This document shows, one piece after another, positions 4,481 to 36,240 of a stretch of 64,000 nucleotides of DNA. Both the position numbers and the translations under genes were made by a program. The notes under the pieces are model-generated. The model searched no databases and had not been told where the DNA came from. It worked only from the letters and a program-made list of their open reading frames with translations. Origin of the DNA: an uncultured Acidobacteriota bacterium (GTDB lineage: Bacteria; Acidobacteriota; Vicinamibacteria; Vicinamibacterales; 2-12-FULL-66-21); the NCBI GenBank assembly GCA_963749835.1, contig CAVVOD010000003.1, positions 257,045 through 321,044 on the forward strand, in the 5' to 3' direction. The stretch's first letter is position 1; each line of letters begins with the position of its first letter.

Positions 4481-7114
4481 TTACTGCACCCCACGGCCCG
4501 CGCCCCCACGGCCACGAATCGCCTGCAGCTCCGTGTCCGTCCATGGGCGCGTCCGCGTTTTCGTCATTCCGCGGATCTCCAGGACATCTTCCGCCTCGAC
4601 GGGCGACCCAGTATGCGCCCACTCCCGGCGGATGTACGTCAGGACGGACGCAATCTGCTCGTCATTGAGCGCGCTCCCCAGGGGGGGCATCAAACCGATG
4701 GTCCCCTCTTTGCCGGCAAGCAGCACGCGGGCGGCGGCCCCCGCATCGGGAGCCGTCACGTAGCGTGAGTTCACGAGACTCGGCGCGATCTTCTCTTTTC
4801 CCATGCCGTCCGGCTGGTGGCAACCGACGCAGAGGCTCTTATAGATGTCGGAGCCCGCATCATAGCGCCGCTGCTGCTCTGCGTTCAGTGGAACGGCGGC
4901 CGTCACCACCGCTGCAGGTTTGCCGGTCCAGTCCAGCTTCGCAGCCACGCGCTTCGCCACGCTTCCGGTCTCGTCGTTCACCGCAGCCAGCCGCGTAAGC
5001 TCGAGTGGCTCGGCCGGAAGCGCGACGAGCTTGACGGGCTGCGCGACACCGCGGCCTCCGCCACGCCCTCCGCGTCCGCCGCCCGCAGCGGGAAGGCCGG
5101 TGTCCAGCCCCTGCAGAAGTGCACTCCGCTGCCACGCGGGCGTCGCCTCATCGCCGGCGCGCGCCAGCAGGCGCTGCACCGACGGAACGATCGCGCTCTT
5201 CGCAACGGCGGCTGCCAGCATCGTCACGGCGTCAGCCTCGCCCGCGGCGGGATGCGACTGCAGCACGCGCTCGAGCACGTCTCCTTCCGCGCCCCGCAGC
5301 CCGCTGATTGTGGCATCCACCACAATCTCGTCGCTGCCGTAACGCGAGAGCAGGGTCACGGCAGGCTCGGTCCGCGCGGCCTGCGGCAGTTCACCCAGGC
5401 TCGCTCCAAGCTGGCGCCGCACGGTCCAGGACGGATCGTCCATCAGCTTGAGCACCCCTGCCGTCAGCGGGGCAGTGCCCTCGCGCAGCCAGCGTTCCGA
5501 CAGCCGAATCGCCGCGGCCCGCACGTCAGCGGATTTGTCGCCGAGCGACTTCTGCACGCTCGGCGCGTCGAGCGCGTCGAGGCCGTCCAGCGTCCACAGC
5601 GCGTGCAGCTTGACCCGCCAGTCGGACGTCTGTCCAAGGAGCTTCGTCAGGAGCGGCGTGGCCTCCTTCGCATAGCGCTCGACGATCAGCTGCTGCGCCG
5701 TGTCGCGCCACCAGCCGTTCGGATGCGACAGCGTCTGCACCAGCTGCGCGGTCGTCGCCTTCGAGAGTGCCGGCGCCCGATCGCGCCGCGTCGTATCGTG
5801 GACGATGCGCCAGATGCGGCCGTGCCCGATCGGCTGCTGGAGGTCTCCCGCTTTGATGTAATCCCGCAGATAGTCCGTCCAGTAGATGGCCTCCTGGACA
5901 ACCCCTCGATACATGTCGACGACGTACAGCGTCCCGTCGGGACCTCCGAGCAGGTTCACGGGCCGGAAACGCTCGTCCCATGACGCGAGGATCTCACCCT
6001 TCTTATAGCCGTCCACGGCGGTGAGACGGCCCGCGCCATCGTCCACCACCTTGTATCGATGCACGAGATTCGTCGTCGAGTCCGTAATGAACGCGTCGCC
6101 GTAGAGCTCCTTCGGCAACCGGTCTCCGCGATAGATGACGGGAGTGCCGACGCCCTGAATCGTGACCGAGCTGTCGTCGGGCCGGAAGAACTGATCGCGA
6201 TATCCACGATTCACGCCGCGCGTCGCCCGGATCGGCCAGATCGTCGAGGCCTCGCGCGAGATGAGTGGATCGTACAAACCGCGCGTGCGCGCCAGGTTCG
6301 GGTTCCGTGAGTAGTACCGTGCGGCCACGAAATCGACGAACAGCGGCGCGTCGTTCACATTCCGGTAGATCCGGCCCGCGTCGTCCTGTGTGGCGCCCCA
6401 CTGGCCGCGGCTGAGCGTCGGCTGCGTTTCGAACTTGCCGTCCTTCAGGCGGAGGTGCCAGTCGTGCTCGGACGTGTAGATCGTGTTGTCGAGTCCCCAG
6501 AACAGGCTGTTCGCGTTGTGCTCGATGCTCGCTTCCCCGCGTCCGTAGGTGTTGTTGACCAGTTCCCTGGTGTCAGCCTTGAGATCGCCGTCCGTGTCTT
6601 TCATGAGCCACAGGTTCGGCGGCTCGCCGACGAGGACGCCTTGATCGAGCACCTTCAGCGACCGGGGCAGCACCAGCTTGTCGGCAAACACCGTCCGTGT
6701 GTCCATCACGCCGTCGCCGTTCTTGTCCTCGAGGACGATCACGTTGTTGATCGGCTCGCGCAGATTCATCGCGTTCGCGCCGGCCATGAACCCCGGCATC
6801 TCCAGCACCCAGAGCCGTCCGTCCGCGTCGAAATCGATCGCAATCGGATCCATCACGAGCGGCTCTTTCGCGACGAGCTCCGCATGGTATCCGGGCGGCA
6901 GCGAGAACGTCTTCAACTCCTCCTCTGCTGTCAGCACGGGGGCTTTCGTGGGCGTCTTCCGGACGGGCGGAGGCCACGGTCCGCGCTGCGATCTTGCCCC
7001 GGCGGATCCTGACGCGGGCCGCGAGGCGCGGGCCTGGAACGCGTGCACGACGCCAATCGACGCAACCGCGAGGACAACGAGGCCGGCAGCGACACGGGGC
7101 TTGAGCAAGGGCAT
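4481..7114 (-). CDS. PVC-type haem-binding CxxCH protein with a membrane-bound-dehydrogenase-like N-domain and HEAT-like repeats (paralog 1, no discoidin tail)
   Basis: 877 aa with a signal peptide. N-domain LKTFSLPPGYHAELVAKEPLVMDPIAIDFDADGRLWVLEMPGFM. Also HPNGWWRDTAQQLIV, helical repeats, and a C-terminal cytochrome c motif CVGCHQPDGMG. Contains a GGGRGGRGGGRG insert and an RGRGGAGRG C-terminus. Confidence 0.85.
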   Translation of the reverse strand: MPLLKPRVAAGLVVLAVASIGVVHAFQARASRPASGSAGARSQRGPWPPPVRKTPTKAPVLTAEEELKTFSLPPGYHAELVAKEPLVMDPIAIDFDADGRLWVLEMPGFMAGANAMNLREPINNVIVLEDKNGDGVMDTRTVFADKLVLPRSLKVLDQGVLVGEPPNLWLMKDTDGDLKADTRELVNNTYGRGEASIEHNANSLFWGLDNTIYTSEHDWHLRLKDGKFETQPTLSRGQWGATQDDAGRIYRNVNDAPLFVDFVAARYYSRNPNLARTRGLYDPLISREASTIWPIRATRGVNRGYRDQFFRPDDSSVTIQGVGTPVIYRGDRLPKELYGDAFITDSTTNLVHRYKVVDDGAGRLTAVDGYKKGEILASWDERFRPVNLLGGPDGTLYVVDMYRGVVQEAIYWTDYLRDYIKAGDLQQPIGHGRIWRIVHDTTRRDRAPALSKATTAQLVQTLSHPNGWWRDTAQQLIVERYAKEATPLLTKLLGQTSDWRVKLHALWTLDGLDALDAPSVQKSLGDKSADVRAAAIRLSERWLREGTAPLTAGVLKLMDDPSWTVRRQLGASLGELPQAARTEPAVTLLSRYGSDEIVVDATISGLRGAEGDVLERVLQSHPAAGEADAVTMLAAAVAKSAIVPSVQRLLARAGDEATPAWQRSALLQGLDTGLPAAGGGRGGRGGGRGVAQPVKLVALPAEPLELTRLAAVNDETGSVAKRVAAKLDWTGKPAAVVTAAVPLNAEQQRRYDAGSDIYKSLCVGCHQPDGMGKEKIAPSLVNSRYVTAPDAGAAARVLLAGKEGTIGLMPPLGSALNDEQIASVLTYIRREWAHTGSPVEAEDVLEIRGMTKTRTRPWTDTELQAIRGRGGAGRGVQ

Positions 7115-7178: not shown

Positions 7179-8795
7179 CTACTGCACGGGAATCAGGCGT
7201 GCCACCACGCCGGGTGTCGACTGTGACAGGCTCTGGCCGGGCAACTGCATCGTCACGTACAGATATCCGTCGGGCCCGACGATGACGTCGCGGATACGGC
7301 CGAATTGATTGAAGAGCACTTCCTGGTGCGTGACTTTGTCGCCGGAAATCTCGAGACGCCGGAGCTGCTGGCCGGCGAGCCCGCCGACGAAGAGATTGTT
7401 CTTCCATCCGGGATACTTCGTGCCGGAATAGAACGCCATGCCGCCCGGTGCGATCGTCGGCGTGTAGTACACGACCGGCGGGTCCATGCCTTCCTGGGCC
7501 CGCTTGGTGATGCCGGGCTGAAGCCCCATGGTGACGACACCCCAGCCGTAGTTGTGGCCCGGCTCGATGATGTTGATCTCGTCGCCCCCCTGGGGTCCGT
7601 GCTCGGACTCCCACAGCTTGCCGCTGACGGGATCCCACGCAAGCCCCTGCGGATGCCGATGCCCGTAGCTCCAGATCGACGCCACGGCGCCCGCGCGATT
7701 GACGAACGGGTTGTCCTTCGGAACCGTGCCGTCGTCATTGACGCGATGGATCTTGCCGAGCGGATCACCGAGATCCTGGGCGTGCGTCATGTCGTTCTTC
7801 TCGCCGAGCGTGTAGAACAGGTGCCCCTCCTTGTCGAATGTGAAGCGCGACCCGTAGTGCGCGTTCGTCGAGGAGTACAGCTCCGGCTTGGCGCGGAAGA
7901 GGACCTGCTGGTCCGTCCACTCGTTGTTCTTGCTGATCTTGCCGCGCACGATGACCGTCATCGACGGCGGATCGGGAGGGCCGCCACGGCCTCGTCCACC
8001 CTGCGGAGCGGCGGCAGGCGCGGGAGGCGCTGCGGGATCGACCGGCGCGGGGGGGGGCGGCGCGTAGCCGGGCAGCGTCTCGGAGTAGGAGAGATAGATC
8101 CAGCCGTTGCGTGCGTACTGCGGGTGGACCTCGACGTCGAGCAGCCCGCCGTCCTGCTTCTCCCAGACCTTTGGTGTCCCCTTCACCGCGTCCGGCAGCA
8201 TGGCGCCCTTTTCGATGATGCGGAGGCGGCCCGGTCGCTCCGTCACGAGCAGACGGCCATCGGGCAGAAAGGCCAGGCCCCACGGCGTCTCGACATTGCG
8301 CGCGACGATATCGATCTTGAACGTCTGCTTTTCGGTCTTGATGATCTGACCGTTCGGATCGGCCACGTACTGCGGCTTTTCCTTCAGGTTCGCCCCCTGC
8401 ATGCGCAGGTAGGTGACGAGCTGCCAGATCTGCGGCTCGGTCAGCGCGGACTTGAACGCCACCATTTCCGTATTGGGGATGCCGTCGGCGATGATGGCGG
8501 CAATCGACTCATCGTCGGTCGCGCGAGTCCACTTGTCGTCGAAGAGCGTCGGGATCCTGCCACCCTCGAGTCCCGTGCCGTGGCAGCCGGCGCAGGTTTC
8601 GGTATAAAGGGTCGCGGCCGGGTTCCCGCGTCCACCGCCGCGCCCCGAAGGGGCTGCACGCGTCGGTTCGCTGGATGCCGGAGCGGCTGCCGTCGGATTC
8701 TGGGAAGGCGCCGCGGGCGCCTGCGCGAGAGCTGTCAACGTGGCGGCTAGAGTGCCGACGCCGAGAATTCCAGCCGCTGCGAGAAGTCGTTTCAC
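7179..8795 (-). CDS. Cytochrome c domain fused to a PQQ-dependent (soluble aldose/sorbosone-type) sugar dehydrogenase beta-propeller
   Basis: 538 aa with a signal peptide. N-terminal haem motif CAGCHGTG. Propeller segments PWGLAFLPDGRLLVTERPGRL, YGHRHPQGLAWDP and GPQGGDEINIIEPGHNYGWG. Confidence 0.85.
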   Translation of the reverse strand: MKRLLAAAGILGVGTLAATLTALAQAPAAPSQNPTAAAPASSEPTRAAPSGRGGGRGNPAATLYTETCAGCHGTGLEGGRIPTLFDDKWTRATDDESIAAIIADGIPNTEMVAFKSALTEPQIWQLVTYLRMQGANLKEKPQYVADPNGQIIKTEKQTFKIDIVARNVETPWGLAFLPDGRLLVTERPGRLRIIEKGAMLPDAVKGTPKVWEKQDGGLLDVEVHPQYARNGWIYLSYSETLPGYAPPPPAPVDPAAPPAPAAAPQGGRGRGGPPDPPSMTVIVRGKISKNNEWTDQQVLFRAKPELYSSTNAHYGSRFTFDKEGHLFYTLGEKNDMTHAQDLGDPLGKIHRVNDDGTVPKDNPFVNRAGAVASIWSYGHRHPQGLAWDPVSGKLWESEHGPQGGDEINIIEPGHNYGWGVVTMGLQPGITKRAQEGMDPPVVYYTPTIAPGGMAFYSGTKYPGWKNNLFVGGLAGQQLRRLEISGDKVTHQEVLFNQFGRIRDVIVGPDGYLYVTMQLPGQSLSQSTPGVVARLIPVQ

Positions 8796-8835: not shown

Positions 8836-11598
8836 TCATTTCGTTCCGCCGACCGCCCACACCCGCACCTGCTGAATGCCCCAGGCCTCGCCATTCTGCG
8901 CCGAACCGGTCTGATTGATCCGAATGAACCGGGCCTGCGCGCGAGCAAACGATATCGTGGTCCTTGGAGTTGACCCGGGTCCCTGCGCGACAGGCGGTTG
9001 CCACGTGGTCCCGTCCATCGACACCTGGACACTGTACGCGACCGGCCCGACGGCCGCGGGACCACCGCCCCGGCCGCCGCGGCCGCGGCCTCCGGCGCCC
9101 TGAACGAACGAATCGATCTGGAGATCCGCGATCGTCGCCGGCTGCGGCAGCTCGATCTGGAACCACATGCCCGGCTGCTGAGGCGCGCCCGTGTCCCATC
9201 GCGCGCCCGGCGTTGCGCCGAGGACATTGACCGCCGCCGCCGTGTTGTGACTCGCGCTGACCTTCCATTCCGATGTGTTCGTCAGCGGCGCCGGAACCGT
9301 CGCGAGGAGCTCGGCGAGCGTCCACGGCGCTTTCCGCGGCGTGGCCTTGCGAACCGCCGCCACCTGATCGGATGTCACGAGACCCGCGGAGTTGCCGAAA
9401 CTGTTGCGCACATAGCTGGTGACGTCGGCCAGCCATCCGTCCGTATTGGTGCCCATCGGCACCATGACACCGCCGGGGTAGTTTTTGTCCTCGATGGGCC
9501 CTGTCAGGCCGTGGAGCAGCACCTTGATCGCATACTCGCGATGCCCTGCGACGCGTGGTGAGCCGGCCAGCGATGGCGCGAGCGTCATCCCCTCCGCACC
9601 GCCGGACATCGGCGCCCCCTTGCCATCGGGGGCATGACACGAACTACAGAGCTCCTTGTAAGTGCCTTCGCCGCGGACCATCGATTTCCGCTGGTCCGGC
9701 GAGAAGTTCATGAAGGTGGCTCCCGCGTCGGCGAGCGACGGCCTCTGCCCGAGGTATGCGCCGGGCTTGAGGATCTGCGCGCCGATCTCCTTCACCCCGC
9801 GCACCTGGCTCGCAGCAGCGGTTGCCGCGATGATCTTCGCCGCGTCAGGAACCTTCTGGAGGTTCAGCGTCAGCATCGCCTGGATGATCACGTTCGGATC
9901 GGCGTCCTCCGTCATCGCTCTGTAGTCCGTGGCGAATGACTTGTCCTTCGCCTTGTAGAGCGATTCGCTCGCGCGAATGGCCTGGATCCGGATCTGCGGA
10001 TCCGGGCTCTTCATCAGCTCACGCGCCAGCTTCGCGTCGAACGCCCCCAACCCCTCGAGGGTCCACAGCGCATGAATCCGTGCGAGCTGGTTCGCGGACC
10101 CGCGCGCCATCGTGAGCAGCGCGGGAACGACCGACTTGTCCTGGCCGAGCACCAGCAGCTTCTGGGCCGTGTCGCGCCACCAGCCGTTGGGATGTTCGAG
10201 ATGCGCCACGAGCTGCGCGGGCGTCTCGCTGTACATCCTGGGCGGCGTGAAGCCCGCCGGCTTGCTCTCATGGCTGATCCGCCAGACACGACCCCAGTTG
10301 TGCTGCTTGTCCAGTTCGTACTGATCGATCTTCTTCCGCAGGTACGAATTCGGACCGACGAACTGCGCGTCCTGGATGATACCGGTGTACATGTCCGACA
10401 GGTACAGTGTGCCGTCAGGCGCGTTCGAGATGCTGACGGGACGGAAGAGGGGATCCGTCGAGCGGATGAACTCCGATTTCGGATAGGCGTTCCGAAGCTG
10501 GGTCAGCCCGTCAGTGACCACGACTTTCGCGCGCCTCACGATGCGCCCGACCGGCTCGTTGAAGAAGAGGTCGCCGACGAGATCCGCGGGGAGACGATCG
10601 CCACGGTAAATTTCCACGCCCGACGCCGCCGTGAAATGATTCAGCGTCCCGTCGGGCATCCGCACCCGCCGCATGCCGCCCTGCATGTCCGCGATGCTCC
10701 CGGGAGCGGGCCAGGGGATCAGGAAGTCAGGCTCGAAGTTGTCCGGCACATTGAACGCGCCGTACGCAATCGGAGCCTGGATGTTGACCGGACCGAGCTC
10801 GCCACCGCCGTCCACCCACCACGTCTTCCCGTAATTGTCCTGCGCCGACCACCACTGCCCGCCGTTCGGCTCGGTCTCTTCGCGCAGGATCTTTCCGCCG
10901 GGCGCCATTCGCAGACGGTACGGGTTGTAGGTGGTGTAGATCCAGTTGTCGAGCGCCCACGTCATCCCGCCGGGCTGCCACTCCATGTTCTGGACGCGGC
11001 CGACCCCCTGGTAGAAGAGCTCCTTCTTGTCGGCAACGCCATCGCCATTCGTGTCGGTGTACTTGTAAAGGTCGCGATTGTCGGTTTCGAGGGCGAGGAT
11101 GACGCCGTCGCCCAGCGGAAAGGCAATCCGCGGCATCACCATGTTGTCGATGAACACGGTGTGCTTGTCGTACACGCCGTCTCCGTCCGTGTCCTCGTGG
11201 CGGGAGATGCGGGAGATCGGAGCGCGTGACTCGGAGCCCTCGGCGTCCCGCATGTACGAGCGCATCTCGAGCACGTACATCCTGCCGTTCCCGTCGAACG
11301 TGACGCCGACGGGATCCTGGATCAGCGGATCGGCGAGCACCGGCTCGATCCTGTATCCCTCGGGCAGCAGAAACAGCTTCTGTTGCGTCTCCGGGTCAAG
11401 CCGCACGACAGGTGGTCGCTTGAGAAAATCCGCACCAGCGGTTGCTTCGTCGAATCCGCCGCGGCCGGCCGGTTGCGGCGCGGCCGGTGCAGCCGGCGGT
11501 GGCTGGATTGGCGCCTGGGCGGCCTGCGTGAGAACGAGCGCGCTTGCGGCCAGGAGCACCACGACGAGCAAGCCGAGCCGAGGTCCGAACCGTTTCAT
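8836..11598 (-). CDS. PVC-type haem-binding CxxCH / dehydrogenase-like protein with a C-terminal discoidin (F5/8 type C)-like domain (paralog 2)
   Basis: The track ORF is 8836..11649. I moved the start to ATG 11598 (MKRFGPRLGLLVVVLLAASALVL signal peptide). Contains QQKLFLLPEGYRIEPVLADPLIQDPVGVTFDGNGRMYVLEMRSYM, HPNGWWRDTAQKLLVL and CSSCHAPDGKG. Tail: PGMWFQIELPQ...YSVQVSMDGTTW...ARFIRINQTG, with a GAGGRGRGGRGGG insert. Confidence 0.85.
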   Translation of the reverse strand: MKRFGPRLGLLVVVLLAASALVLTQAAQAPIQPPPAAPAAPQPAGRGGFDEATAGADFLKRPPVVRLDPETQQKLFLLPEGYRIEPVLADPLIQDPVGVTFDGNGRMYVLEMRSYMRDAEGSESRAPISRISRHEDTDGDGVYDKHTVFIDNMVMPRIAFPLGDGVILALETDNRDLYKYTDTNGDGVADKKELFYQGVGRVQNMEWQPGGMTWALDNWIYTTYNPYRLRMAPGGKILREETEPNGGQWWSAQDNYGKTWWVDGGGELGPVNIQAPIAYGAFNVPDNFEPDFLIPWPAPGSIADMQGGMRRVRMPDGTLNHFTAASGVEIYRGDRLPADLVGDLFFNEPVGRIVRRAKVVVTDGLTQLRNAYPKSEFIRSTDPLFRPVSISNAPDGTLYLSDMYTGIIQDAQFVGPNSYLRKKIDQYELDKQHNWGRVWRISHESKPAGFTPPRMYSETPAQLVAHLEHPNGWWRDTAQKLLVLGQDKSVVPALLTMARGSANQLARIHALWTLEGLGAFDAKLARELMKSPDPQIRIQAIRASESLYKAKDKSFATDYRAMTEDADPNVIIQAMLTLNLQKVPDAAKIIAATAAASQVRGVKEIGAQILKPGAYLGQRPSLADAGATFMNFSPDQRKSMVRGEGTYKELCSSCHAPDGKGAPMSGGAEGMTLAPSLAGSPRVAGHREYAIKVLLHGLTGPIEDKNYPGGVMVPMGTNTDGWLADVTSYVRNSFGNSAGLVTSDQVAAVRKATPRKAPWTLAELLATVPAPLTNTSEWKVSASHNTAAAVNVLGATPGARWDTGAPQQPGMWFQIELPQPATIADLQIDSFVQGAGGRGRGGRGGGPAAVGPVAYSVQVSMDGTTWQPPVAQGPGSTPRTTISFARAQARFIRINQTGSAQNGEAWGIQQVRVWAVGGTK

Positions 11599-11799
11599 CC
11601 GTTGAACCTTTCGCACCGGCGGGCGATGAGCGACTGGCCGAACGTGCACAATACCGCCACTCTGCAGGGGGGCGAAGCGCAGGAAGACGTCATTGTGACA
11701 ACAATCCGATGGCGATTACGAGCAAAGGCCGTCGGCCGTTTACCTGCCACGCCGACGGTCCCGGAGTCTTCCTCCGGCTGAAGCCGGAAGCTGCCAGTC

Positions 11800-11889
11800 G
11801 AGTCCCGAATCCCGAACCCGAATCCCGAACCCGAACCCGAGACCCGAGTCCCGAACCGATCCCCGATCCCCGATCCCTATTCCCGAGTT
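11800..11889. repeat. C3-tract tandem array (CCCGAAT/CCCGAAC/CCCGAGN/CCCCGAT units, about 13 C-tracts); G-rich on the minus (sense) strand
   Basis: gagtcccgaatcccgaacccgaatcccgaacccgaacccgagacccgagtcccgaaccgatccccgatccccgatccctattcccgag. It overlaps the stop codon of paralog 3. Confidence 0.85.
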
Positions 11890-14771
11890 TGCGCCGGCTG
11901 ATACACGCGGAATTTCTGGATCGACCACGACGCCGCGTCGTCGGGAGTCGCCGTTTGCGTGATGCGCACGAACTTCGCGGAAACCGGCGCGAACGTGATG
12001 ACGGTCGTCGTCCCCGCCCCCTGTCCTTCTGCGACCGGGCTCCACGAGGCACCATCACTCGATACCTGGACGGTATATGCCCGAGGAAACCCGGAGATCA
12101 TCGTGAATCCCCCGCGGCCGCCGAACTGTCCGGGCCCTGCGGCGCGCGCACCCGCCGGCGCACCAGCTCCTCGTCCTTGAACCGGAGTCGGACCCGGCCC
12201 CGGAGTCCCAGCTGTTCCGGGAGTTGCAGGGGCCGCGCCGCGAGCGCCCCTGCCGCCTGCGGGAGTCGCCGCGGAATCGAACTGGATCTCGGTGATGGAC
12301 GTGGCCGCCGGCAGCTCCACCTGGAACCACATGCCCGGCTGCTGAGGAGCGCCCGTGGACCATGTCCCCGTCGCCAGCGCATTCGCTGCGGCGTCGGGGT
12401 TATGGCTCGCCGTGGCCGTCCATGCTGGCTGCGACGCGAGGAGCACCGGGAGCGAGGCCTCGAGCTCGGCGACGGTCCAGGGCGTGTTGCGATTCGCATC
12501 CGCGGCCCGTGCCCGCGCGACATCCGCCGGTGAGATCAGGGACGCACTGTTCCCAAGGCTGGTCCGAACGTACGACGTCACGGCCGCCATCCAGTCGTCC
12601 TTGTTGGTGCCCATCGGCACCATGACGTCGGTGTAGGTGGTGCCCTGCACGGGCCCCGTCAGTCCGTGCAGCACCGCCTTGATCAGATAATCGCGATGCC
12701 CCAGCACGCGCGGCGAGCCCGTGAGCGGCGGCGCCTTCATCGTCCCGGCCGGCGCTCCATCGACGGGCATGCCCTTTCCGTCCGGTCCGTGACAGGCCGA
12801 GCACAGCTCCGCGTAAATGCCCGCCCCCTCCTGAACGAGCGCCTGCTCCGCCGGCGTCACGGGACCGCCCCGGCCACCGCCGCCGAATCCACCGCCAGTC
12901 GTCGGCGGACGCAGCATCAGGTTGCCGATCTCCTGCACGCCGCGCGCCTTGTTTGCGGCCTGCGCGGCCGTGACTACCTCTTTGAGATCCGCCGCCTTGA
13001 ACAGCTTCAGCGTCAGCATCGCCTGGAGGCTGACGCGCGCGTCCTCATCCTTCGCAAGCTGACGGAAGTCCGCATCGAACGACGTGTCCCCGGCTTTGTA
13101 GAGGGATTCGCTCACACGGATGGCCTGAACCCTGACGAGCGGGTTCAGATCCTTCATCAGGGCGCGCGCCAGCGCCGCGTCGAGTGCGCCAAGCCCTTCG
13201 AGCGTCCACATCGCATGAAAACGTCCCAGCACGCTGGTCGAGTTGCGCGCCATGACCTGCAGCGCGGGCACGACCGACGTGTCCTGACGGAGCACGAGCA
13301 GCTTCTGCGCCGTGTCGCGCCACCAGCCATTCGGATGATCGAGATGCGCGACGAGCTGCGCCGGCTTCTCGTCGAGCATGCGCGGCTGCGTCCGATCCGG
13401 TTCGATGCCGTCGTACACGAGACGCCAGATTCGGCCGTGGCTGATGACTTTGTCGAGCTGAAGCTGGTGAATTTTTGCGCGCAGATACGATCCAGGTTCC
13501 GTCCACTGCGATTCCTGGATGATGCCGTGGTACATGTCCACGATATACAGCGTGCCGTCGGGGGCCGTCGCCATGTTCACGGGTCGGAACAGCGGATCCA
13601 GGCTCAGGATGAACTCGGAATTCGGATAGGGATTGCGCAGCTGCGTGAGCCCCTCGGTCACCACCACCTTCGAGCGTCGAACGAGCCGTCCCACCGGCTC
13701 GGCGAAGATCAGATCGCCACGGAGATCCGCCGGCAGCCTGTCGCCCCGGAATATGTCGGGACCACAGGTGGCGGTGAAATGATTCAGCACCCCGATCGGC
13801 ATCCGGACGCGGCTCATGCCTCCCTGCATGTCGGCGATACTGGGCGCCGGCCACGTCACCTCGAACCCCGGCTCGAACTGGTCCGCCACGTTGAAGGCGC
13901 CGTACACGATCGGCGTCTGGAAATTGAGCGGGCCGCGTTCGCCCCCCGCGTCGACGAACCAGGGCTTGCCGTGATCGTCCTGCGTCAGCCCCCACTGCCC
14001 GAAATTCGGAGCGGTCGGTTCCTTGATCACGCCACCCGGCGTCCAGCGGATCCGGAAGGCGTTGTAGGTGCTGTAGATCCAGTTGTCCAGCGCCCAGATG
14101 AACCCGCTCTGCTGGTGCTCGAGATTCCCACGCCGCCCGGCGCCGCTGAAGAACAGCTCCTTCTTTTCTGCGACACCGTCGCCCGTCGTGTCCGTGTACT
14201 TGAAAATATCGTCCGCGTCGGTCTCCATCGTCAGCACGCTGCCCTTGTCGAGAGGGAGGATGAACCGCGGCAGGACCAGCTTGTCGATGAACACGGAGTG
14301 ACGATCGAAGGTGCCGTCGCCTTTCGTGCTCTCGTGCATGCTGATGCGGCTCACGGGCTCGAACTCGCGGCTGCCGTCGACGTCGAGCATGTAGCTGCGC
14401 ATCTCGTTCACGTAGAGCCGGCCATTGCCGTCGAACGCGATCGCGGTTGGATTGATGATCTCCGGATCGGAGAGCACCAGCTCCATCCGGTAGCCGGGGG
14501 GCAGGATGAAGCGCTTCTGCTGCTCCTCCGGCGTGAGCGGCTGGACGGGCGGTTTCGGGGAAAAGTCTCCAGCCATCGGCTGGTTTCCTCGAGCCGGACC
14601 CTGGGCCGGCGCTCCCTGGCCACTCCGGCCTGCCGGCGCGGGGCCGGACGCCGGTGCGGGCGCCTGCGGTGCGCCTTGCGGCTGGGCAAACACCGTCAAA
14701 CACGCGAGCCACACCAGCGACACGATCGGCACCCACGTTTTCGACAGCTTTTTCGTTTTCATTTCTGGCAT
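11877..14771 (-). CDS. PVC-type haem-binding CxxCH / dehydrogenase-like protein with a discoidin-like tail (paralog 3)
   Basis: The track ORF is 11877..15134. The likely start is ATG 14771 or 14762 (MPEMKTKKLSKTWVPIVSLVWLACLTVFAQ). Contains QQKRFILPPGYRMELVLSDPEIINPTAIAFDGNGRLYVNEMRSYM, HPNGWWRDTAQKLLVL and CSACHGPDGKG. Tail: PGMWFQVELP...YTVQVSSDGASW...AKFVRITQTA, interrupted by a long GGRG/Pro-Ala insert. Confidence 0.85.
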   Translation of the reverse strand: MPEMKTKKLSKTWVPIVSLVWLACLTVFAQPQGAPQAPAPASGPAPAGRSGQGAPAQGPARGNQPMAGDFSPKPPVQPLTPEEQQKRFILPPGYRMELVLSDPEIINPTAIAFDGNGRLYVNEMRSYMLDVDGSREFEPVSRISMHESTKGDGTFDRHSVFIDKLVLPRFILPLDKGSVLTMETDADDIFKYTDTTGDGVAEKKELFFSGAGRRGNLEHQQSGFIWALDNWIYSTYNAFRIRWTPGGVIKEPTAPNFGQWGLTQDDHGKPWFVDAGGERGPLNFQTPIVYGAFNVADQFEPGFEVTWPAPSIADMQGGMSRVRMPIGVLNHFTATCGPDIFRGDRLPADLRGDLIFAEPVGRLVRRSKVVVTEGLTQLRNPYPNSEFILSLDPLFRPVNMATAPDGTLYIVDMYHGIIQESQWTEPGSYLRAKIHQLQLDKVISHGRIWRLVYDGIEPDRTQPRMLDEKPAQLVAHLDHPNGWWRDTAQKLLVLRQDTSVVPALQVMARNSTSVLGRFHAMWTLEGLGALDAALARALMKDLNPLVRVQAIRVSESLYKAGDTSFDADFRQLAKDEDARVSLQAMLTLKLFKAADLKEVVTAAQAANKARGVQEIGNLMLRPPTTGGGFGGGGRGGPVTPAEQALVQEGAGIYAELCSACHGPDGKGMPVDGAPAGTMKAPPLTGSPRVLGHRDYLIKAVLHGLTGPVQGTTYTDVMVPMGTNKDDWMAAVTSYVRTSLGNSASLISPADVARARAADANRNTPWTVAELEASLPVLLASQPAWTATASHNPDAAANALATGTWSTGAPQQPGMWFQVELPAATSITEIQFDSAATPAGGRGARGAAPATPGTAGTPGPGPTPVQGRGAGAPAGARAAGPGQFGGRGGFTMISGFPRAYTVQVSSDGASWSPVAEGQGAGTTTVITFAPVSAKFVRITQTATPDDAASWSIQKFRVYQPAQTRE

Positions 14772-14838: not shown

Positions 14839-14860
14839 TCGATGCAATCGTTTGCATCGA
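14839..14860. promoter_or_regulatory. Candidate LacI-family operator (perfect 9-bp inverted repeat around a CG-centred core)
   Basis: TCGATGCAA-TCGT-TTGCATCGA. The inner 14-mer TGCAATCGTTTGCA fits the generic LacI/GalR half-site pattern TGNAA.CG.TTNCA. It lies in the divergent region between paralog 3 (start 14771) and lacI. Confidence 0.5.
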
Positions 14861-14995
14861 TTTCCACCATCGGTGTACACCCCCGCAGGCAGGTTGTCAA
14901 AGACGTTGCGCTCTGCGAAACGCATGCGATTGCTGGATCAATTTGTGGCTCGCCGTGGCCGAGGCGGATATGATGGCGACGTTTCGGGGGGCCAT

Positions 14996-24665: not shown

Positions 24666-25872
24666 TCAGATCACCGGTGTCGGGGTCGTCAGCGCCGCCA
24701 GGACTTCTTTGTAGAGATACTTGGCTCCTTCGACACCGTTCAAGGGACCTTCTTCGTACTCGAGCGCGAAAGTGCCTTTGAAGCCGGCCGCGAGCATGAT
24801 GCGGACCGAGCGCTGGACGTCATTCTTCTCGCCCCACCGATCCCAGGTACTTCGCGTGGACGTTGGTGTGCGAGTACGGCGCCAGCGCTTTCAATCCGCT
24901 CACCAGCATGTAGTCGTACTCCCAGTTGCAGAAGTCCGGCGAAGCCTCGCAATACGGGCTGTTGACTTCGTCGATGATCGTGCGGATGTTGATGGGATCG
25001 GCCGCGAGTCCCCAGTGGTTCTCGAGCGTCACCCTGATGCCCAGGTTCCCGCCGTAGTCGGCCATCTCCTTGTACGACTCGATCGCGCTCTTGAGGTACG
25101 GCATGATCTCGTCGTTCTTCGGATATCCGTTCCTGGGATCGATGGCGGCCTGCGGCCTGATGCTCGGCCCGAGCGCCCGCGGCGAGTTCATGCGCACGGA
25201 CTTCGCCCCGATGATCGCGGCGCCGGCCAGCCACTTCTTGCCCACCTCGACACCGGCTTTGCGGAGCGCCTCATCGGGTCCCGCGAGATCGTTCGGCGCG
25301 TTGTTGGAGATGTGCTGCACCTTCGTGCCCGTCGTCACCAGCTTCGCGGCCAGCTGGTCCAGCCACTTCTTCCCGGACAACGTGGACGGATCGAACGTAC
25401 GCCCTGCGAACATGCTGTCGTCGGTCACGTCCCCGAAGAGTCCCGAAAAGATGTCCATGTGGGTGACGCCCGGGAACGTGTCCTTCGTCCACTGCGGGAA
25501 ATCGAGCATCGTGATCTCGCCGTACTTCTTCTTCATCTCTTCCGAGCTCACGCCGGCATTGACCGGGCCGCGCGCCGGGTTCGGAGCTGGAGCGGGCGGT
25601 GCACCCGCTGCGGCACCCGGCTGTCCCGCGCCGCCTCGCCCCGCGGCGCCTGCACCCGCGCCACGACCGCCTCCCGGGCGTGACTTGAAGATGTACCGGA
25701 TCGGGTAGGAGTTCGACGCGATGCGCGCCAGCCGATCCTTTTCCGCCCGCTCCTGGGCAATGAGCTGCTCTCTCGGCGTCAGCATCAGGCCGGCCGCCGT
25801 CAGTCCGGCGCCGGCGGTCTTGAAGAAGTCACGGCGGTCGAGACCCCGGCCGTTGTCAGTCGTGTCACTCAT
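24666..25872 (-). pseudogene. TAT-exported xylose-isomerase-like TIM-barrel (sugar phosphate isomerase/epimerase family) protein with a 1-nt frameshift near the 3' end
   Basis: The track ORF 24820..25872 has a twin-arginine N-terminus GLDRRDFFKTAGAGLTAAGL. After ...HTNVHAKY the homologous reading continues in another frame (WDRWGEKNDVQRSVRIMLAAGFKGTFALEYEEGPLNGVEGAKYLYKEVLAALTTPTPVI*, stop at complement of 24666-24668). There is one extra base at about 24846. Confidence 0.75.
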
Positions 25873-31963: not shown

Positions 31964-33148
31964 CTAAGATTTGTAAGCGACCGTGGTCCACTGGGATCCG
32001 TTGCGCGCGCTCTCGAGAATGGCTTCGACGACGCAGTTCGCGCGGTACCCGTCTTCGAATGTGGCAAATGCCGGTGGATGAGGATCCGAAGGCTTCTTGC
32101 CGGCGGCGATGAATCCGTAAATATCCCGCATCACGTTGCAGAAGGCGTCAGCCCAGGATTCCTGGTGCCCGCCGGGGAGGTGCGCGTAGCGGCCCGCTTC
32201 GGTGTCGAGCAGCGAAGGATCCTTCGCGAGGACTTCGTTGGCCTTGTCGCGGCGTCCGATCCACAGCTGGTTCTGGCTCTCCTGGTGCCATCTGAGCGAC
32301 GCGCTCGACCCGCAGATCTCGAGCTGCAGATCGTTCTTGTGTCCCGCACAGACCTGACCCACGGAAAAGCTGCCCTTGGCTCCGTTGTCGAAGCGCAGCA
32401 GCACCGACGCGAGATCCTCGACCTTGATGTCCACTTCTTCGACCGCCTGGTCGGCTCCGGCGACCGCAAACGCCTCGCGCGATCCCTTCGGCTTCTTGCG
32501 TATCGGGATGACGGTCGTGATGTCCCCCAGCACGTGCGTGATCTTCAACCCGCTGATGTGCTGAGCCAGATCGCACCAGTGGGAGCCGATATCGCCCAGC
32601 GCCGACGAGGCGCCCCCCTTGTCCGGTTCGAGACGCCAGGAATAGTCCGTGTCCTTCAGGAGCCAGTCCTGGAGGTAATGGCCGACGAGAAACGTCGGAC
32701 GCCCGATGTCGCCGCGCGCGATGGCATTGCGCGCCTGCTGCACGAGCGGGTTGCCGCGATAGTTGAACGTGACGGCGTGGACGATGCCGGCCTTGTTGGC
32801 CTGGTCGAGCAGCGTCTTCGCCTCCGCCGCCGTCATCGCGAGCGGCTTGTCGGAGATGACGTGCTTCCCTTTCGCAATCGCCGCGGCATTCACGGGGTAG
32901 TGCAGGTAGTTGGGGGTCGCATTGTGGACCACCTGGATGTCCGGATCGTCCAGCAGCGCTTCGTAGCTTCCATAGGCCTTTCGCGCGCCGAGCGCTTCGG
33001 CCTTCTTTTCAGCCGACGCCTGGCTGCTGCCGGCCACGGCCACAACGTCCACGTATCCCAGCCTGCGGACCGCGTCCACATGATGGGGTCCGACGAACCC
33101 TGCACCAACGATTCCCATCCCAATCCGTTTCACGGCAAAGTCCTCCAC
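31964..33148 (-). CDS. Gfo/Idh/MocA family oxidoreductase
   Basis: 394 aa with Rossmann N-terminus [25 protein letters not shown]. Confidence 0.85.
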
Positions 33149-33150
33149 AC

Positions 33151-33296
33151 GAGCTATCAGCTGACAGCTATCAGCCCTCAGCTTCGCCTGCAGTTTCGAG
33201 TTCCGCGTCAGTTCCCAGTCTTCCGCTTCCAGGTCCCATTCTTTGGCTACTGGACCGGTTACGGCGCCGCTGATAGCTGACAGCTGAAAGCTCCGA
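33151..33296. repeat. Heptamer arrays arranged as inverted arms (CAGCTAT-type left, GCTGATA-type right) around CAGTTTC-type units
   Basis: Left arm: gagctat cagctga cagctat cagccct cagcttc. Centre: cagtttcgagttccgcgtcagttcccagtcttccgcttccaggtcc. Right arm: gctgata gctgaca gctgaaa gctccga. It fills part of the gap between the paralog 4 stop and the Gfo start. Confidence 0.7.
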
Positions 33297-33468: not shown

Positions 33469-36240
33469 CTAGCTTCCCGCTCCTGGTCTGTACAACCGCA
33501 GCCGCAGCATCGACCAGGGCGGAGCCCCCTCGACGGATGCTGTCTGCGTCAGCCGCACGAACTTTGCCTGCACGGGAGAGAACCGGATTGCGGTACTCAC
33601 TCCGGTCCCGGCTCCCCTGGCGACAGTCGTCCACTGTGTGCCGTCTGTGGAAATGTCGACGACGTATTCGCGCGGAAATCCTGAGGTCGGCGGTGGCGCG
33701 CCGGCGCCGCGCCCTCCGCCGATGCGTGACGAGTCGAACTGGATCTCCGTGACTGGCGTCGCCTGCGGAAGCTCGACCTGGAACCACATGCCGGGCGCCT
33801 GCGAAGTGCCGCTGCTCCACGTCGCGAAGTTGAACGCCTGGGCAGCCTTCTCCGTGTTGTGGCTCGCCGTCGCTTTCCACCCGGCATCGGCGGGGAGTGC
33901 GGCCGGCACCGATGCGACGAGTTGATCGAAGGTCCAGTTCGCCGTCCGGCTCGAGGTCGCCGCGCGCACGCGCGCGACGTCCGCGGCCGATACGAACGGC
34001 GCGGCGTTACCGTACGTGTTGCGGATGTACGACGCGATCGACGCAATCCACTCATCGCGGTTGGACCCCATGGGCACCATCACGCCACCGGCATAGGCCC
34101 GGCCGTCCAGGGGACCCGTCAGCCCGTGCAGCAGGGTCTTGATGACGTAGTCGGGGTGCCCGGTGATGCGTGGGTTGCCGACGAACGCCGGAGCCATGAT
34201 CGTGCCGGCTGCCGCCCCCGCGAGTGGCGCGCCTCGTCCGTCATCGCCGTGGCACGAAGAGCACAGCTCTTTGTGAATCGCATCCCCGCGCTGCATGGCG
34301 GCAAGCTCGTCCTCCGAGAACGGGTTGTTGCCCGGACGTCCGTAGGTCAGCGCCGGCGGATTCAGGATCTGCCGGCCGACTTCCTGGACGCCGCGCGCCG
34401 GGTTCGCTGCCTGCGCGGTCGCGACCGTCTCCGCAACTCTGGGCTCCTTGAGGACGTTCAGTGTCAGCATCGCCTGGATCACGACGTCCACATCGGTGTC
34501 CTGCGCGAGCCTGCGGTAGTCGCCCGCCAGGGATCGATCGCCGGCTTTATAAAGCGTCTCGCTCACGCGAATCGCCTGTATCCGCATCTTCGGATTCGGA
34601 TCCTCCAGCTGCTGCCGCACGAGTGCGGCATCGAGCGCGCCCAGTCCCTCCAGCGTCCACATCGCATGGAACCGGCCGAAGAGGCTCGGCGACGAGCGCA
34701 CCATCTTCTGCAGCGCCGGGACCACGGATTGGTCCTGCTCGAGGACGAGCAGCTGCTGCGCCGTGTCGCGCCACCAGCCGTTCGGATGATCGAGGTGAGT
34801 CACGAGCTGCGCCGCGGTCTCGTTCAGCATGCGCGGCTGCGTTCGATCGCGCCCGGTGCTCTCGTGCGACAGACGCCAAATCCGTCCGCGTCGCACGATT
34901 TTCGCCAGCTGATACTGATCGATCTTCGCACGCAGGTAGCTGCCCGGCTGGGTCCACGTCCCTTCCTGGATGATCCCGCGATACAGATCGACGATGTATT
35001 CGGTGCCGTCGGGAGCGGTGGCGATATCGACGGGACGGAACAGATGGTCCGTCGATCGAATGAACTCGGAGTGCTCCCACTGGTGCACGTTCTGGAGTTG
35101 CGTGAGCCCCTCGGTCACGACCGGCCTCACGCGGCGCACGATCCGGGCGACCGGTTCGCCATAGAGATAATCGCCGAGCAGATCCTTCGGCATCCGGTGG
35201 CCACGGACGAAGTCGTTGCCCGCGGATCCCGTCACGCTCACAAGCGTCAGATCCGGACGACGTATCGCGCTCGTGCCCGGCTGAAAATCGCCAACCCCCG
35301 AAACGCCCCAGGGAATCTCGAACCCCGGTGCGAGTTGATCCGGCACTCTGAAGTTGCCGTAGTGAATCGGGAACTGGAAGTACGACGGCAGCCCGCTGGC
35401 GCCTCCCTGAAACCACATCTTGCCGAAATCGTCGTGCGTGATCCCCCACTGCGCGCCATTGGTGCCTGTCGGCTCCCGGACAACGCCGTTCGGCGTCCAC
35501 CGGACCCTGAAGGCGTTGTAGGTGCTGTACAGCCAGTTGTCCATGCCCCAGTGGAGGCTGCTCTGCTGATGCTCGACGTTGCCGGCCCGCCCGAAGTTCG
35601 TGGTGAAGAGCTCCTTCTTGTCGGCCACTCCGTCACCGTTCGTGTCCGTGTACCGCCATACCTCATCCTGGTTCGACTCCATCGTCAGAATGCTGTTGGC
35701 GCCGAACGGCAGCACGAACCGCGGAAACACCAGCTTGTCGACGAAGACCGAATGTTTCTCGTACACGCCGTCGTGGTTCACGTCCTCGTGCACGGAGATG
35801 CGTCCGATCGGATCGAGCTCGCCGGTCGCATCCGCATCCTGCATGTAGGCGCGGATCTCGACGACGAACATGCGGCCGTTGCCGTCGAACGCGATTTGCG
35901 TGGGCTCCTGGACGTCAGGCTCGGTGAGAACCGGCTCCATCTTGTAGCCGGGCTGCAGGACGAATCGCTTCTGCTGTTCCGCGGCAGAGACCGCGACAAT
36001 CGGCGGCTTGGGCGTCAGGTCCGCACCCTCGAACGGATCCGGACCACGCCCTCCGGTCCCGCGGGCGCCTGGCACGGGGGGGGCCCCCTGCGGTGGCGGC
36101 GTCGGCGTCGGCGCAGTCTGGACAGGTGCGGCCGACGGTGCCGTCGGTGTCTGCGCGACCACGACGAAGCAGGCGACATACACGCCCAGCGCGGCGGTGA
36201 GCAGCCGCGCGAAGCGCGAGCGGGCAAGTCTGGCGGTCAT
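33469..36240 (-). CDS. PVC-type haem-binding CxxCH / dehydrogenase-like protein with a discoidin-like tail (paralog 4)
   Basis: The track ORF is 33469..36261 (TTG start). The likely start is ATG 36240 (MTARLARSRFARLLTAALGVYVACFVVVAQ). Contains QQKRFVLQPGYKMEPVLTEPDVQEPTQIAFDGNGRMFVVEIRAYM, HPNGWWRDTAQQLLVL and CSSCHGDDGRG. Tail: PGMWFQVELPQ...YVVDISTDGTQW...AKFVRLTQTA. Confidence 0.85.
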   Translation of the reverse strand: MTARLARSRFARLLTAALGVYVACFVVVAQTPTAPSAAPVQTAPTPTPPPQGAPPVPGARGTGGRGPDPFEGADLTPKPPIVAVSAAEQQKRFVLQPGYKMEPVLTEPDVQEPTQIAFDGNGRMFVVEIRAYMQDADATGELDPIGRISVHEDVNHDGVYEKHSVFVDKLVFPRFVLPFGANSILTMESNQDEVWRYTDTNGDGVADKKELFTTNFGRAGNVEHQQSSLHWGMDNWLYSTYNAFRVRWTPNGVVREPTGTNGAQWGITHDDFGKMWFQGGASGLPSYFQFPIHYGNFRVPDQLAPGFEIPWGVSGVGDFQPGTSAIRRPDLTLVSVTGSAGNDFVRGHRMPKDLLGDYLYGEPVARIVRRVRPVVTEGLTQLQNVHQWEHSEFIRSTDHLFRPVDIATAPDGTEYIVDLYRGIIQEGTWTQPGSYLRAKIDQYQLAKIVRRGRIWRLSHESTGRDRTQPRMLNETAAQLVTHLDHPNGWWRDTAQQLLVLEQDQSVVPALQKMVRSSPSLFGRFHAMWTLEGLGALDAALVRQQLEDPNPKMRIQAIRVSETLYKAGDRSLAGDYRRLAQDTDVDVVIQAMLTLNVLKEPRVAETVATAQAANPARGVQEVGRQILNPPALTYGRPGNNPFSEDELAAMQRGDAIHKELCSSCHGDDGRGAPLAGAAAGTIMAPAFVGNPRITGHPDYVIKTLLHGLTGPLDGRAYAGGVMVPMGSNRDEWIASIASYIRNTYGNAAPFVSAADVARVRAATSSRTANWTFDQLVASVPAALPADAGWKATASHNTEKAAQAFNFATWSSGTSQAPGMWFQVELPQATPVTEIQFDSSRIGGGRGAGAPPPTSGFPREYVVDISTDGTQWTTVARGAGTGVSTAIRFSPVQAKFVRLTQTASVEGAPPWSMLRLRLYRPGAGS

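Follow-up and report, generated by a model that had tools for sequence, protein, structure and literature searches.

Four long genes, here called P1 to P4, lie on the minus strand of a 64,000-nucleotide stretch of DNA from an uncultured Acidobacteriota bacterium (contig CAVVOD010000003.1, positions 257,045–321,044; this whole stretch is the window in what follows). A first-pass annotation had read them as paralogous, 'dehydrogenase-like' haem c proteins embedded among sugar enzymes, three of them with a discoidin-like tail. What does such a protein do, and why would one locus hold four? By their profile scores, P1–P4 are members of a large catalogued family, PF23500 (DUF7133)/TIGR02604, 'PVC-type heme-binding CxxCH protein'. 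They represent four separate orthogroups of long standing, whose conserved neighbours differ, and the evidence is consistent with their being substrate-specialised variants. We propose, with the case for and against about evenly balanced, that they are carbohydrate oxidoreductases of the periplasm, each reducing its own haem c and, in P2–P4, targeted by a tail of carbohydrate-binding module family 32 (CBM32), and that each paralog is specific to a pathway.

Four intact genes with a shared domain order

The genes and their predicted domains are as follows.

4481–7114, minus strand: P1, 877 aa; signal-peptide-like N-terminus, DUF7133 propeller, HEAT repeats and cytochrome c, without discoidin tail
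5795–6928, minus strand: P1 propeller, residues 63–440 (Pfam PF23500)
4817–4831, minus strand: P1 haem-attachment motif CVGCH, residues 762–766
8836–11598, minus strand: P2, 920 aa; signal-peptide-like N-terminus, propeller, HEAT, cytochrome c and CBM32-like tail
10267–11394, minus strand: P2 six-bladed propeller, residues 69–444 (Pfam, model, Foldseek and conservation)
9769–10221, minus strand: P2 HEAT-repeat alpha-solenoid, residues ~460–610, opening with HPNGWWRDTAQ (HEAT_2 match)
9331–9675, minus strand: P2 class-I cytochrome c, residues ~642–756, with CSSCH at 9634–9648 and the Met motif VMVPMG at residue 711
8848–9273, minus strand: P2 CBM32/discoidin tail, residues 776–917 (F5_F8_type_C, E 3e-9; Foldseek)
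11877–14771, minus strand: P3, 964 aa; layout as P2 and P4, including the tail
13413–14531, minus strand: P3 propeller
12789–12803, minus strand: P3 haem motif CSACH
~11880–12437, minus strand: P3 tail
33469–36240, minus strand: P4, 923 aa; layout as P2 and P3, including the tail
34861–35982, minus strand: P4 propeller
34249–34263, minus strand: P4 haem motif CSSCH
~33472–33870, minus strand: P4 tail

Each open reading frame (ORF) is intact, with a stop codon and an ATG start that precedes a signal-peptide-like hydrophobic stretch; the G+C content of the window is 64–68%. ORF translations and blastp confirmed that all four genes are present and homologous. P2, P3 and P4 are 50–58% identical to one another over ~870–950 aa, essentially their full length (E = 0), and P1 is 34–37% identical to them over ~540–570 N-terminal aa (E 1e-81 to 1e-93), with a further ~30% identity in the cytochrome domain. 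Because the identity spans propeller, HEAT, cytochrome and tail, a low-complexity artefact was ruled out; the pairwise likeness sits in the structured domains. No fifth paralog was found by tblastn in the window. Of the motif blocks said to be shared, HPNGWWRDTAQ and C..CH occur in all four proteins, and PGMWFQ..ELP and (A/K)(R/K)F(V/I)R(I/L).QT were found in P2–P4 as claimed, but P1 deviates in two blocks, carrying EELKTF in place of QQK.F and FDADGRLWVLEMPGFM in place of FDGNGR.

Pfam placed DUF7133, HEAT_2 and Cytochrom_C/Cytochrome_CBB3 in this order in each protein, behind a Pro/Ala/Gly linker that follows the signal-peptide-like N-terminus, and added F5_F8_type_C only in P2–P4. PF23500 scored 262–313 bits (cut-off 27; E 1e-77 to 3e-93), with P1 at 313 bits and E 3e-93, and TIGR02604 (NCBIfam) was matched by all four at 137–196 bits (cut-off 122.2), with P1 at 196 bits. 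A first AlphaFold model, of full-length P2 with 41 close homologues, was confident for the HEAT region (460–610, helices with predicted local distance difference test (pLDDT) values of 85–95), the cytochrome (640–760) and the tail (775–917). Propeller residues 244–410 were of low confidence in this model, which is why its Foldseek matches were all to the tail. The helical repeats noted earlier are HEAT_2 repeats by Pfam.

A single CxxCH is present per protein, at residues 651–762 across the four. Downstream of it lies a Met in the motif (V/L)M.P(M/L)G, which is ≥90% conserved in 52 diverse family members; in alignments it falls in the Met region of the cytochrome c domains that are joined to copper nitrite reductases. 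Matches of the domain in the PDB were the cytochrome domains of Cu-nitrite reductases, cytochrome c552, and cytochrome subunits of fructose, glucose and alcohol dehydrogenases. Judged from its motifs, the domain is a class I c-type cytochrome with a single haem and predicted His/Met ligation, and the earlier assignment of haem c is upheld by CxxCH, Pfam Cytochrom_C and the conserved distal Met.

A large family with a near-constant cytochrome fusion

In an exhaustive profile search (E ≤ 1e-3) the family comprised 13,037 clusters at 50% identity; at least 597 relatives came from a scan that took a single genome for each species. P1, P2 and P4 each have full-length homologues by the thousand that share their precomputed Pfam architecture; the sources call these 'mono/diheme cytochrome c family protein / glucose/arabinose dehydrogenase', 'discoidin domain-containing protein' or 'PVC-type heme-binding CxxCH protein'. 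The four-domain form with the F5/8C tail occurs in thousands of proteins of Acidobacteriota, Verrucomicrobiota, Planctomycetota and Bacteroidota; the best relative, 79% identical, is from an unclassified Acidobacteriota metagenome-assembled genome (MAG), and Vicinamibacterales MAGs reach 71–72%. These matches point to the same clade as source of the window, most likely a soil acidobacterium of the Vicinamibacterales. As recognisable members of a catalogued family, the genes are an ordinary genomic finding. P1–P4 keep the family's standard propeller–HEAT–CxxCH order without essential difference, and their own features are a Trp for His after Glu206 in the P2 orthogroup and an expanded tail loop in Acidobacteriota (both below).

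Among 52 diverse representatives, Cytochrom_C was found in 46, HEAT_2 in 43, F5/8C in 11, ThuA in four, and NPCBM and PA14 in one each; 97 of 104 representatives of ≥700 aa contain CxxCH. The propeller is almost always fused to haem c, suggesting that its job is coupled to electron transfer, and carbohydrate-binding modules are frequent further partners. The first-pass annotation had proposed an 'uncharacterised redox enzyme': the proteins are known to databases as PF23500/TIGR02604, and the redox role is something that we infer. The literature on DUF7133, PF23500 and the family names is thin, and there is no agreed function for the family, which is a glycosidase in one paper and a dehydrogenase or cytochrome in database names.

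The propeller resembles PQQ sugar dehydrogenases at the level of the fold

A second AlphaFold model, restricted to the propeller of P2 and built with 129 sequences drawn from four subfamilies, reached pLDDT 89.8 and a predicted template-modelling score (pTM) of 0.92 and contained six groups of about four strands, that is, a six-bladed propeller. Its best Foldseek matches in the PDB were 2ISM (TTHA0570), 6I1Q (AA12), 1CQ1 (Acinetobacter calcoaceticus sGDH), 3A9G (Pyrobaculum) and 2G8S (E. coli Asd). The label 'dehydrogenase-like' therefore stands in so far as the propeller is six-bladed and its top matches are pyrroloquinoline quinone (PQQ) sugar dehydrogenases (SGDHs) and AA12 enzymes, but the resemblance is at fold level only and the PQQ signature, by inspection, is not kept.

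PDB sequence and profile searches matched the cytochrome and tail domains and never the propeller. In hhalign comparisons with one GSDH sequence, that of the window's own gene at 7179–8795, only signal peptides aligned; with two GSDH sequences the probability was 24%, blades 1 and 5–6 lining up convincingly and the middle blades unreliably. A GSDH hidden Markov model compared with 150 family representatives likewise aligned only over blades 1 and 5–6. Weak GSDH matches were found in 7 of 52 diverse DUF7133 proteins (best E 6e-5), and the window's GSDH matched TIGR02604 over its last blades at E 2.5e-7. DUF7133 proteins share with SGDHs and AA12 enzymes a six-bladed propeller whose first and last blades align, with FDG.GR..V.E corresponding to F.PDGR..V.E of SGDHs and FRPV..APDG.LY..D to R.RDV..PDG.LY..D. 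The product of 7179–8795 carries the SGDH signature as AHYGSR, GHRHPQG, EHGPQGGDEIN and GRIRDV..PDG, of which only the last has a DUF7133 counterpart; the Arg of this FRPV..APDG motif is 99% conserved and, in a mapping from predicted strand order, equivalent to sGDH Arg408. The HRN and Ca/PQQ-binding motifs of SGDHs were not seen on inspection of DUF7133 proteins. SGDHs are without the HEAT spacer and the two DxDxDG loops of DUF7133 proteins. In P2 these Ca-loop-like motifs lie at residues 136–144 and 182–190; they are EF-hand-like, give faint Pfam EF-hand matches and are conserved in the family propeller.

Residues Glu111, Arg157, Glu206, Gln248/Trp249, Arg332, Asp382, Arg386 and Asp402 are ≥93% conserved in 134 diverse propellers. 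They appear to cluster at strand ends on one face, where SGDHs bind PQQ and substrate, in a mapping that relies on predicted strand order. In SGDHs the catalytic His precedes strand A of blade 3; the residue after the invariant Glu206 would fall at this position. This residue is His in P1 (44/44 relatives), P3 and P4 (43/44), Trp in all 40 P2-type sequences (window 10978–10983, encoding P2 residues 206–207), and one of Ser, Gly and Ala in other subgroups of Acidobacteriota.

P2–P4 carry a CBM32-type tail with an expanded loop

F5_F8_type_C (PF00754) scored 37.4, 46.9 and 43.7 bits in P2, P3 and P4 (cut-off 28.2) and gave no match in P1. The modelled P2 tail has pLDDT ~80–94 outside an insert whose residues 834–848 are of low pLDDT and disordered. 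Foldseek matched the tail (prob 1.0, TMt 0.71–0.76) to the CBM32 modules 4ZY9, 4A42, 2V72 and 7D2A, and also to the galactose oxidase N-domain and a sialidase CBM32; sequence and profile matches in the PDB were Paenibacillus chitosan-binding modules and, again, the galactose oxidase N-domain. With Pfam scores above the cut-off and an AlphaFold tail at ~0.75 TM to CBM32, the discoidin-like tail of paralogs 2–4 is confirmed as a domain, a CBM32-type module with a modelled beta-sandwich fold and predicted carbohydrate binding. The P2 tail is predicted to have the same beta-sandwich as the CBM32 modules of galactose oxidase (N-domain), Micromonospora viridifaciens sialidase, C. perfringens and Paenibacillus, from which the P2–P4 tails differ by a disordered Gly/Arg/Ala/Pro insert of 17–61 aa in one loop.

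9046–9108, minus strand: P2 Gly/Arg-rich loop, residues 831–851, 21 aa, FVQGAGGRGRGGRGGGPAAVG (low pLDDT; homologue comparison)
12090–12272, minus strand: P3 Gly/Arg/Ala/Pro-rich loop, residues 834–894, 61 aa
33679–33729, minus strand: P4 Gly/Arg-rich loop, residues 838–854, 17 aa, SRIGGGRGAGAPPPTSG

The insert occupies the loop between ...(I/F)DS and (F/Y/V)P(R/A).Y, and in P3 Pfam's best stretch covers only the part of the tail after it. The same loop is longer by 10 to >100 residues around a recurring GGRG core in Acidobacteriota homologues. In Verrucomicrobiota and Planctomycetota homologues it is short (..KS..DYPRGY), even in genomes of 64–67% G+C, and no Gly/Arg-rich stretch was seen among the Bacteroidota homologues listed. 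Base composition alone does not explain the loop, since Verrucomicrobiota homologues of 0.64–0.67 G+C are free of it; high G+C as the sole cause was thereby ruled out. We conclude that the Gly/Arg loop is an Acidobacteriota-specific expansion of a surface loop, not a separate domain or a domain fusion.

A GGRG-rich insert had been reported to split the tail in each copy. The insert is real in P2–P4, but GGRG runs are not specific to the tails and occur also in P1, in the HEAT–cytochrome linker of P3 and in three further exported proteins that the window encodes. In all, GGRG/GGGRGG runs were seen in seven proteins: P1–P4, the cytochrome-c-fused GSDH (twice), an MBL-fold protein (457–1905) and a TIM barrel with a twin-arginine translocation (Tat) signal (24820–25872). 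The runs sit in linkers or surface loops, one of those in GSDH interrupting blade 2. All seven proteins have export signals; such runs were absent from the 17 other proteins checked.

Old orthogroups in different gene settings

Acidobacterial relatives form three types, P2-type (67–79% identical), P3-type (71–73%) and P4-type (57–66%), several of which co-occur in single genomes; verrucomicrobial proteins are nearest to P3. P2 and P3 are adjacent, as the first-pass annotation had it in calling them a tandem pair, but a recent duplication was ruled out by their 58% identity and their membership in separate old orthogroups. A close relative, the Joint Genome Institute soil metagenome contig L085 (~88% nucleotide identity), is collinear with the window over roughly the first 27 kb and is without P3 except for a 65-nt remnant matching window 14425–14489 (gap against window 11747–14655). 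This gene order indicates that the P3–P2 adjacency is not a fresh duplication and that P3 was lost in at least one sister lineage. L085 is also without the 977-aa FG-GAP/fn3/He_PIG gene at 21416–24349 (gap against window 21398–24669).

The genes around the paralogs are sugar enzymes by Pfam, as had been claimed. The following adjoin P1–P4 or recur in the argument below.

7179–8795, minus strand: exported cytochrome-c-fused PQQ-type aldose sugar dehydrogenase (YliI/Asd-like), between P2 and P1 (GSDH E 2e-119, plus Cytochrome_CBB3)
3335–4477, minus strand: exported aldose 1-epimerase (mutarotase), starting 3 bp downstream of the P1 end (Pfam Aldose_epim; signal-peptide-like N-terminus)
14852–16000, plus strand: LacI-family regulator, divergent from P3 (Pfam LacI and Peripla_BP)
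31964–33148, minus strand: Gfo/Idh/MocA oxidoreductase, resembling levoglucosan (sugar 3-) dehydrogenase most closely; directly downstream of P4
36420–37412, minus strand: xylose-isomerase-like TIM barrel, psicose-3-epimerase-like, directly upstream of P4
37336–38211, minus strand: exported DUF1080/3-keto-disaccharide hydrolase family protein, upstream of P4 (Pfam PF06439)
19416–20186: second DUF1080 copy (Pfam PF06439)

P3, P2, the cytochrome-c-fused GSDH, P1, the aldose 1-epimerase and genes for an SDR, a NIPSNAP and an MBL-fold protein form a run on the minus strand, with gaps of 40, 64 and 3 bp for P2/GSDH, GSDH/P1 and P1/epimerase. The product of 7179–8795 matches 2G8S at E 1e-75, contains the motifs H..G.R, GHR.PQG and EHGP..DE.N, and has an N-terminal cytochrome c domain plus a signal peptide; on these features it is predicted to be a bona fide Asd/YliI-type PQQ aldose dehydrogenase. 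When the contexts of P1 orthologues were sampled in four other contigs, the cytochrome-c-fused GSDH lay directly upstream in 4/5 cases (three other contigs and the window). The gene itself indicates that the organism wires periplasmic sugar oxidation to c-type cytochromes. ThuA adjoins P1 orthologues in four of the other contigs and a mutarotase is close by in three (L083, L085 and L087); in L086 the neighbourhood runs on into an ILVD_EDD dehydratase and an FAA_hydrolase-family gene, a combination that is a hallmark of an oxidative aldose (Weimberg-type) route.

P4 has a different setting. Its orthologues adjoin a pair of Gfo and TIM-barrel (AP_endonuc_2) genes in 3/3 cases (the window, L082 and L088), and the P4 flanks in the window also include another TIM barrel. 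In L082 and L088 the P4 orthologue comes directly after this pair, near ThuA–DUF7133 fusions. These adjoining fusion genes (L082:3704–7345 and L088:825–2810) encode proteins with ThuA on the N-terminal side of a DUF7133 propeller and HEAT repeats but with no cytochrome, and the one in L088 also adjoins a 509-aa cupredoxin protein. A LacI-family regulator adjoins the P2 orthologue in L085. Scans of the window for LacI operator palindromes, promoters and terminators gave nothing above chance.

One universal conserved operon was considered and dropped, as the neighbour context is heterogeneous; the orthogroup-specific associations were kept. Pfam annotation of ~214 neighbouring ORFs showed the heterogeneity, and few matches came from a tblastn search of 80 related loci with the proteins of neighbouring genes in the window.

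Proposed function and its alternatives

P1–P4 are predicted to be exported from their signal-peptide-like N-termini, and the products of neighbouring genes likewise appear exported by their N-termini. In the proposed oxidoreductase, the top face of the propeller would bind a sugar or glycan and oxidise it, Arg157, Glu206, Gln248/Trp249, Asp382, Arg386 and Asp402 forming the candidate site. Electrons would pass from the propeller to the protein's own haem c and on to a periplasmic or respiratory electron chain, with the HEAT repeats serving as spacer between propeller and cytochrome and the CBM32 tail tethering P2–P4 to a glycan. Both the oxidation chemistry and the electron path are what we infer from the domains. 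Such a scheme would parallel quinohaemoprotein dehydrogenases, the neighbouring PQQ aldose dehydrogenase, which is likewise fused to a cytochrome for electron hand-off, and fungal AA12/cellobiose dehydrogenases. Fungal pyranose dehydrogenase consists of an AA8 cytochrome, an AA12 domain and CBM1, and passes electrons to its fused cytochrome. P1 might serve a route of C1 aldose oxidation with the PQQ dehydrogenase, mutarotase, MBL-fold protein and an aldonate dehydratase, and P4 a 3-keto-sugar route with the Gfo/Idh/MocA protein, TIM-barrel enzymes and DUF1080 hydrolase.

DUF1080 has been shown to hydrolyse 3-keto-trehalose, and the periplasmic glycoside 3-dehydrogenases LacABC and ThuAB have been described as cytochrome-c-dependent (PMC8121099). 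Planctomycete genomes hold 18–20 'beta-propeller-type glycoside hydrolases' each, together with 17–20 DUF1080 and 33–41 PF01408 proteins (PMC5352709, PMC7397252). The 3-keto activity of DUF1080 and the cytochrome dependence of LacABC and ThuAB make a redox role of the co-expanding propeller–cytochrome family plausible. P4 and its orthologues sit among gene families of the LacABC/ThuAB 3-keto-glycoside pathway, and relatives have ThuA next to DUF7133 or fused to it; P1–P4, however, contain no FAD/GMC or ThuB-type catalytic domain, and that they make 3-keto-glycosides is conjecture.

Several results weigh against the oxidoreductase proposal. The P2 propeller reaches a TM of only ~0.45–0.55 and 11–15% identity with PQQ sugar dehydrogenases and AA12, and non-redox propellers score nearly as high (virginiamycin B lyase, luciferin-regenerating enzyme and NHL, with HHIP also close). 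At E ≤ 10 neither the P1 nor the P2 propeller matched Pfam GSDH (PF07995), inspection of DUF7133 proteins did not show the SGDH motifs GHRNPQG and E(Q/H)GP..DE.N, the catalytic-His position varies (Trp across the P2 type, Ser, Gly or Ala elsewhere), and no propeller cofactor was identified for P1–P4. P2 orthologues are frequently solitary, the neighbourhood of tailed homologues is heterogeneous over 36 loci in four phyla, and the commonest carbohydrate neighbour, the xylose-isomerase-like TIM barrel AP_endonuc_2, occurred only 4 and 5 times in two sets. In addition, the sole published assay of a family member reports hydrolysis of lactose, not its oxidation (PMC5342196).

Some of these points would fit proteins in which only the cytochrome is functional, shuttling electrons to the respiratory chain while propeller and HEAT repeats dock onto glycan or partner dehydrogenases (the cytochrome-c-fused GSDH, ThuA/ThuB-like or Gfo-type enzymes). 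HEAT repeats are typical protein–protein interaction modules, the putative catalytic His position is variable, P1 orthologues adjoin the cytochrome-c-fused GSDH, ThuA is found adjacent or fused to DUF7133, and LacABC and ThuAB are called cytochrome-c-dependent glycoside 3-dehydrogenases (PMC8121099). However, about a dozen polar residues are ≥93% conserved across the 134 propellers, a pattern more like that of an active site or a site for a ligand than that of a docking surface. The GSDH next door moreover has a cytochrome domain of its own, and many homologues are solitary genes. We therefore regard such a relay as unlikely.

Less probable again is that the propeller cleaves glycosides, with the cytochrome as an accessory or with oxidation followed by elimination. 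The founder of this idea is Lac161_ORF7 (AGW45552), from a soil cosmid with which Cheng et al. obtained growth of a lac-minus S. meliloti on lactose; it is a 109-kDa protein that combines TIGR02604, HEAT_2 and Cytochrom_C, described as a 'novel beta-galactosidase' and reported to split lactose, the purified protein releasing glucose with a Km of 1.8 mM and a kcat of 13 per s (PMC5342196). By the paper's domain description it has the three-domain layout of P1, is likewise from soil, comes from a Chthoniobacter-like verrucomicrobium and, unlike P2–P4, is without a discoidin tail. The planctomycete papers list the family as putative glycoside hydrolases co-expanding with DUF1080 and PF01408 (PMC5352709, PMC7397252), the conserved propeller Glu, Asp and Arg would suit a glycosidase, and CBM fusions exist (NPCBM, PA14 and F5/8C). 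Lac161_ORF7 was, however, produced in IPTG-induced E. coli BL21(DE3)pLysS, and its authors note that its Km equals that of LacZ (PMC5342196). Aerobic E. coli would not attach haem c, which puts the cytochrome domain outside the assay. BL21(DE3)pLysS carries an intact, functional, IPTG-inducible lacZ. Host LacZ may thus have been carried over, and with an inducible lacZ and an equal Km the hydrolase assignment is unconfirmed. Plain hydrolysis also leaves the near-universal cytochrome c fusion (46/52) unexplained, and Pfam and PDB searches revealed no likeness to any CAZy GH family.

A non-catalytic, periplasmic glycan-binding or sensing protein, with a lectin-like propeller, a CBM32 tail and a redox-sensing haem, could draw on the six-bladed lectins (Photorhabdus PHL) and the NHL and HHIP binding domains among the fold matches, and on the tail itself, but is very improbable given the lack of an output or signalling domain, the operons shared with catabolic enzymes and a cytochrome nearest to the electron-transfer cytochromes of dehydrogenases and nitrite reductases.

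The oxidoreductase proposal can be extended, tentatively and with considerable doubt, to the family as a whole, which might form a large, unrecognised class of periplasmic carbohydrate dehydrogenases that pass electrons to their own haem c and from it straight into the respiratory chain. Its members would be bacterial counterparts of fungal AA12/cellobiose dehydrogenases, with PQQ in a divergent pocket or with another cofactor. CBM-tailed forms might act on polymeric or surface-bound glycans, P4-type enzymes might make keto-glycosides for the neighbouring DUF1080 hydrolase, and the fixed His-to-Trp change in the P2 orthogroup might mark a changed chemistry. The family is among the largest exported cytochrome-fusion families of soil Acidobacteria and the Planctomycetota–Verrucomicrobiota–Chlamydiota (PVC) phyla, and knowing its activity would reveal how abundant soil bacteria link extracytoplasmic sugar oxidation to respiration and could also provide direct-electron-transfer enzymes for biosensors. 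The window is a compact test bed, holding four intact paralogs with and without the CBM32 tail, one of them in an operon with the cytochrome-c-fused PQQ aldose dehydrogenase and a mutarotase, another in a 3-keto-sugar cluster.

Other features of the window

A search of sequencing runs matched only soil and permafrost DNA runs, with ≤13% of words, and no RNA run. Four genes appear to be split over at least two frames, at 17360–19400 (minus strand), 38374–39616, 39803–41297 and 55708–58429 (all plus strand). The split genes are FG-GAP/ASPIC-like (intact, at 652 aa, in L085), an Arthrobacter-type xylose isomerase, an FGGY kinase and a TonB-dependent receptor, and are either pseudogenes or indel errors of long-read assembly. 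Tandem arrays of short period (6–8 nt) are found in many intergenic stretches, at 11799–11888, 33152–33292, 36321–36348, 38264–38317 and 39619–39798; for example, P3 meets CCCGAA repeats right at its 3' end, and the stretch between the Gfo gene and P4 holds AGCTATC/ATCAGCT arrays arranged as an inverted pair.

The xylose-isomerase-like TIM barrel at 24820–25872 (minus strand) has a twin-arginine (RRDFFK) export signal, which predicts a periplasmic location here for at least one member of an enzyme family that is usually cytoplasmic. Two ORFs join transporter parts: 44066–46141 (minus strand; BPD_transp_2 and Peripla_BP_4), an ABC permease fused to a solute-binding domain, and 47304–48797 (plus strand; SBP_bac_3 and BPD_transp_1), an ABC solute-binding domain fused to a permease. 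The 710-aa ORF at 49490–51622 (plus strand) has N-terminal ankyrin repeats and a weak PQQ_2/BamB-like propeller match, and its codon bias is below that of its neighbours (G+C at third codon positions, GC3, 0.73).

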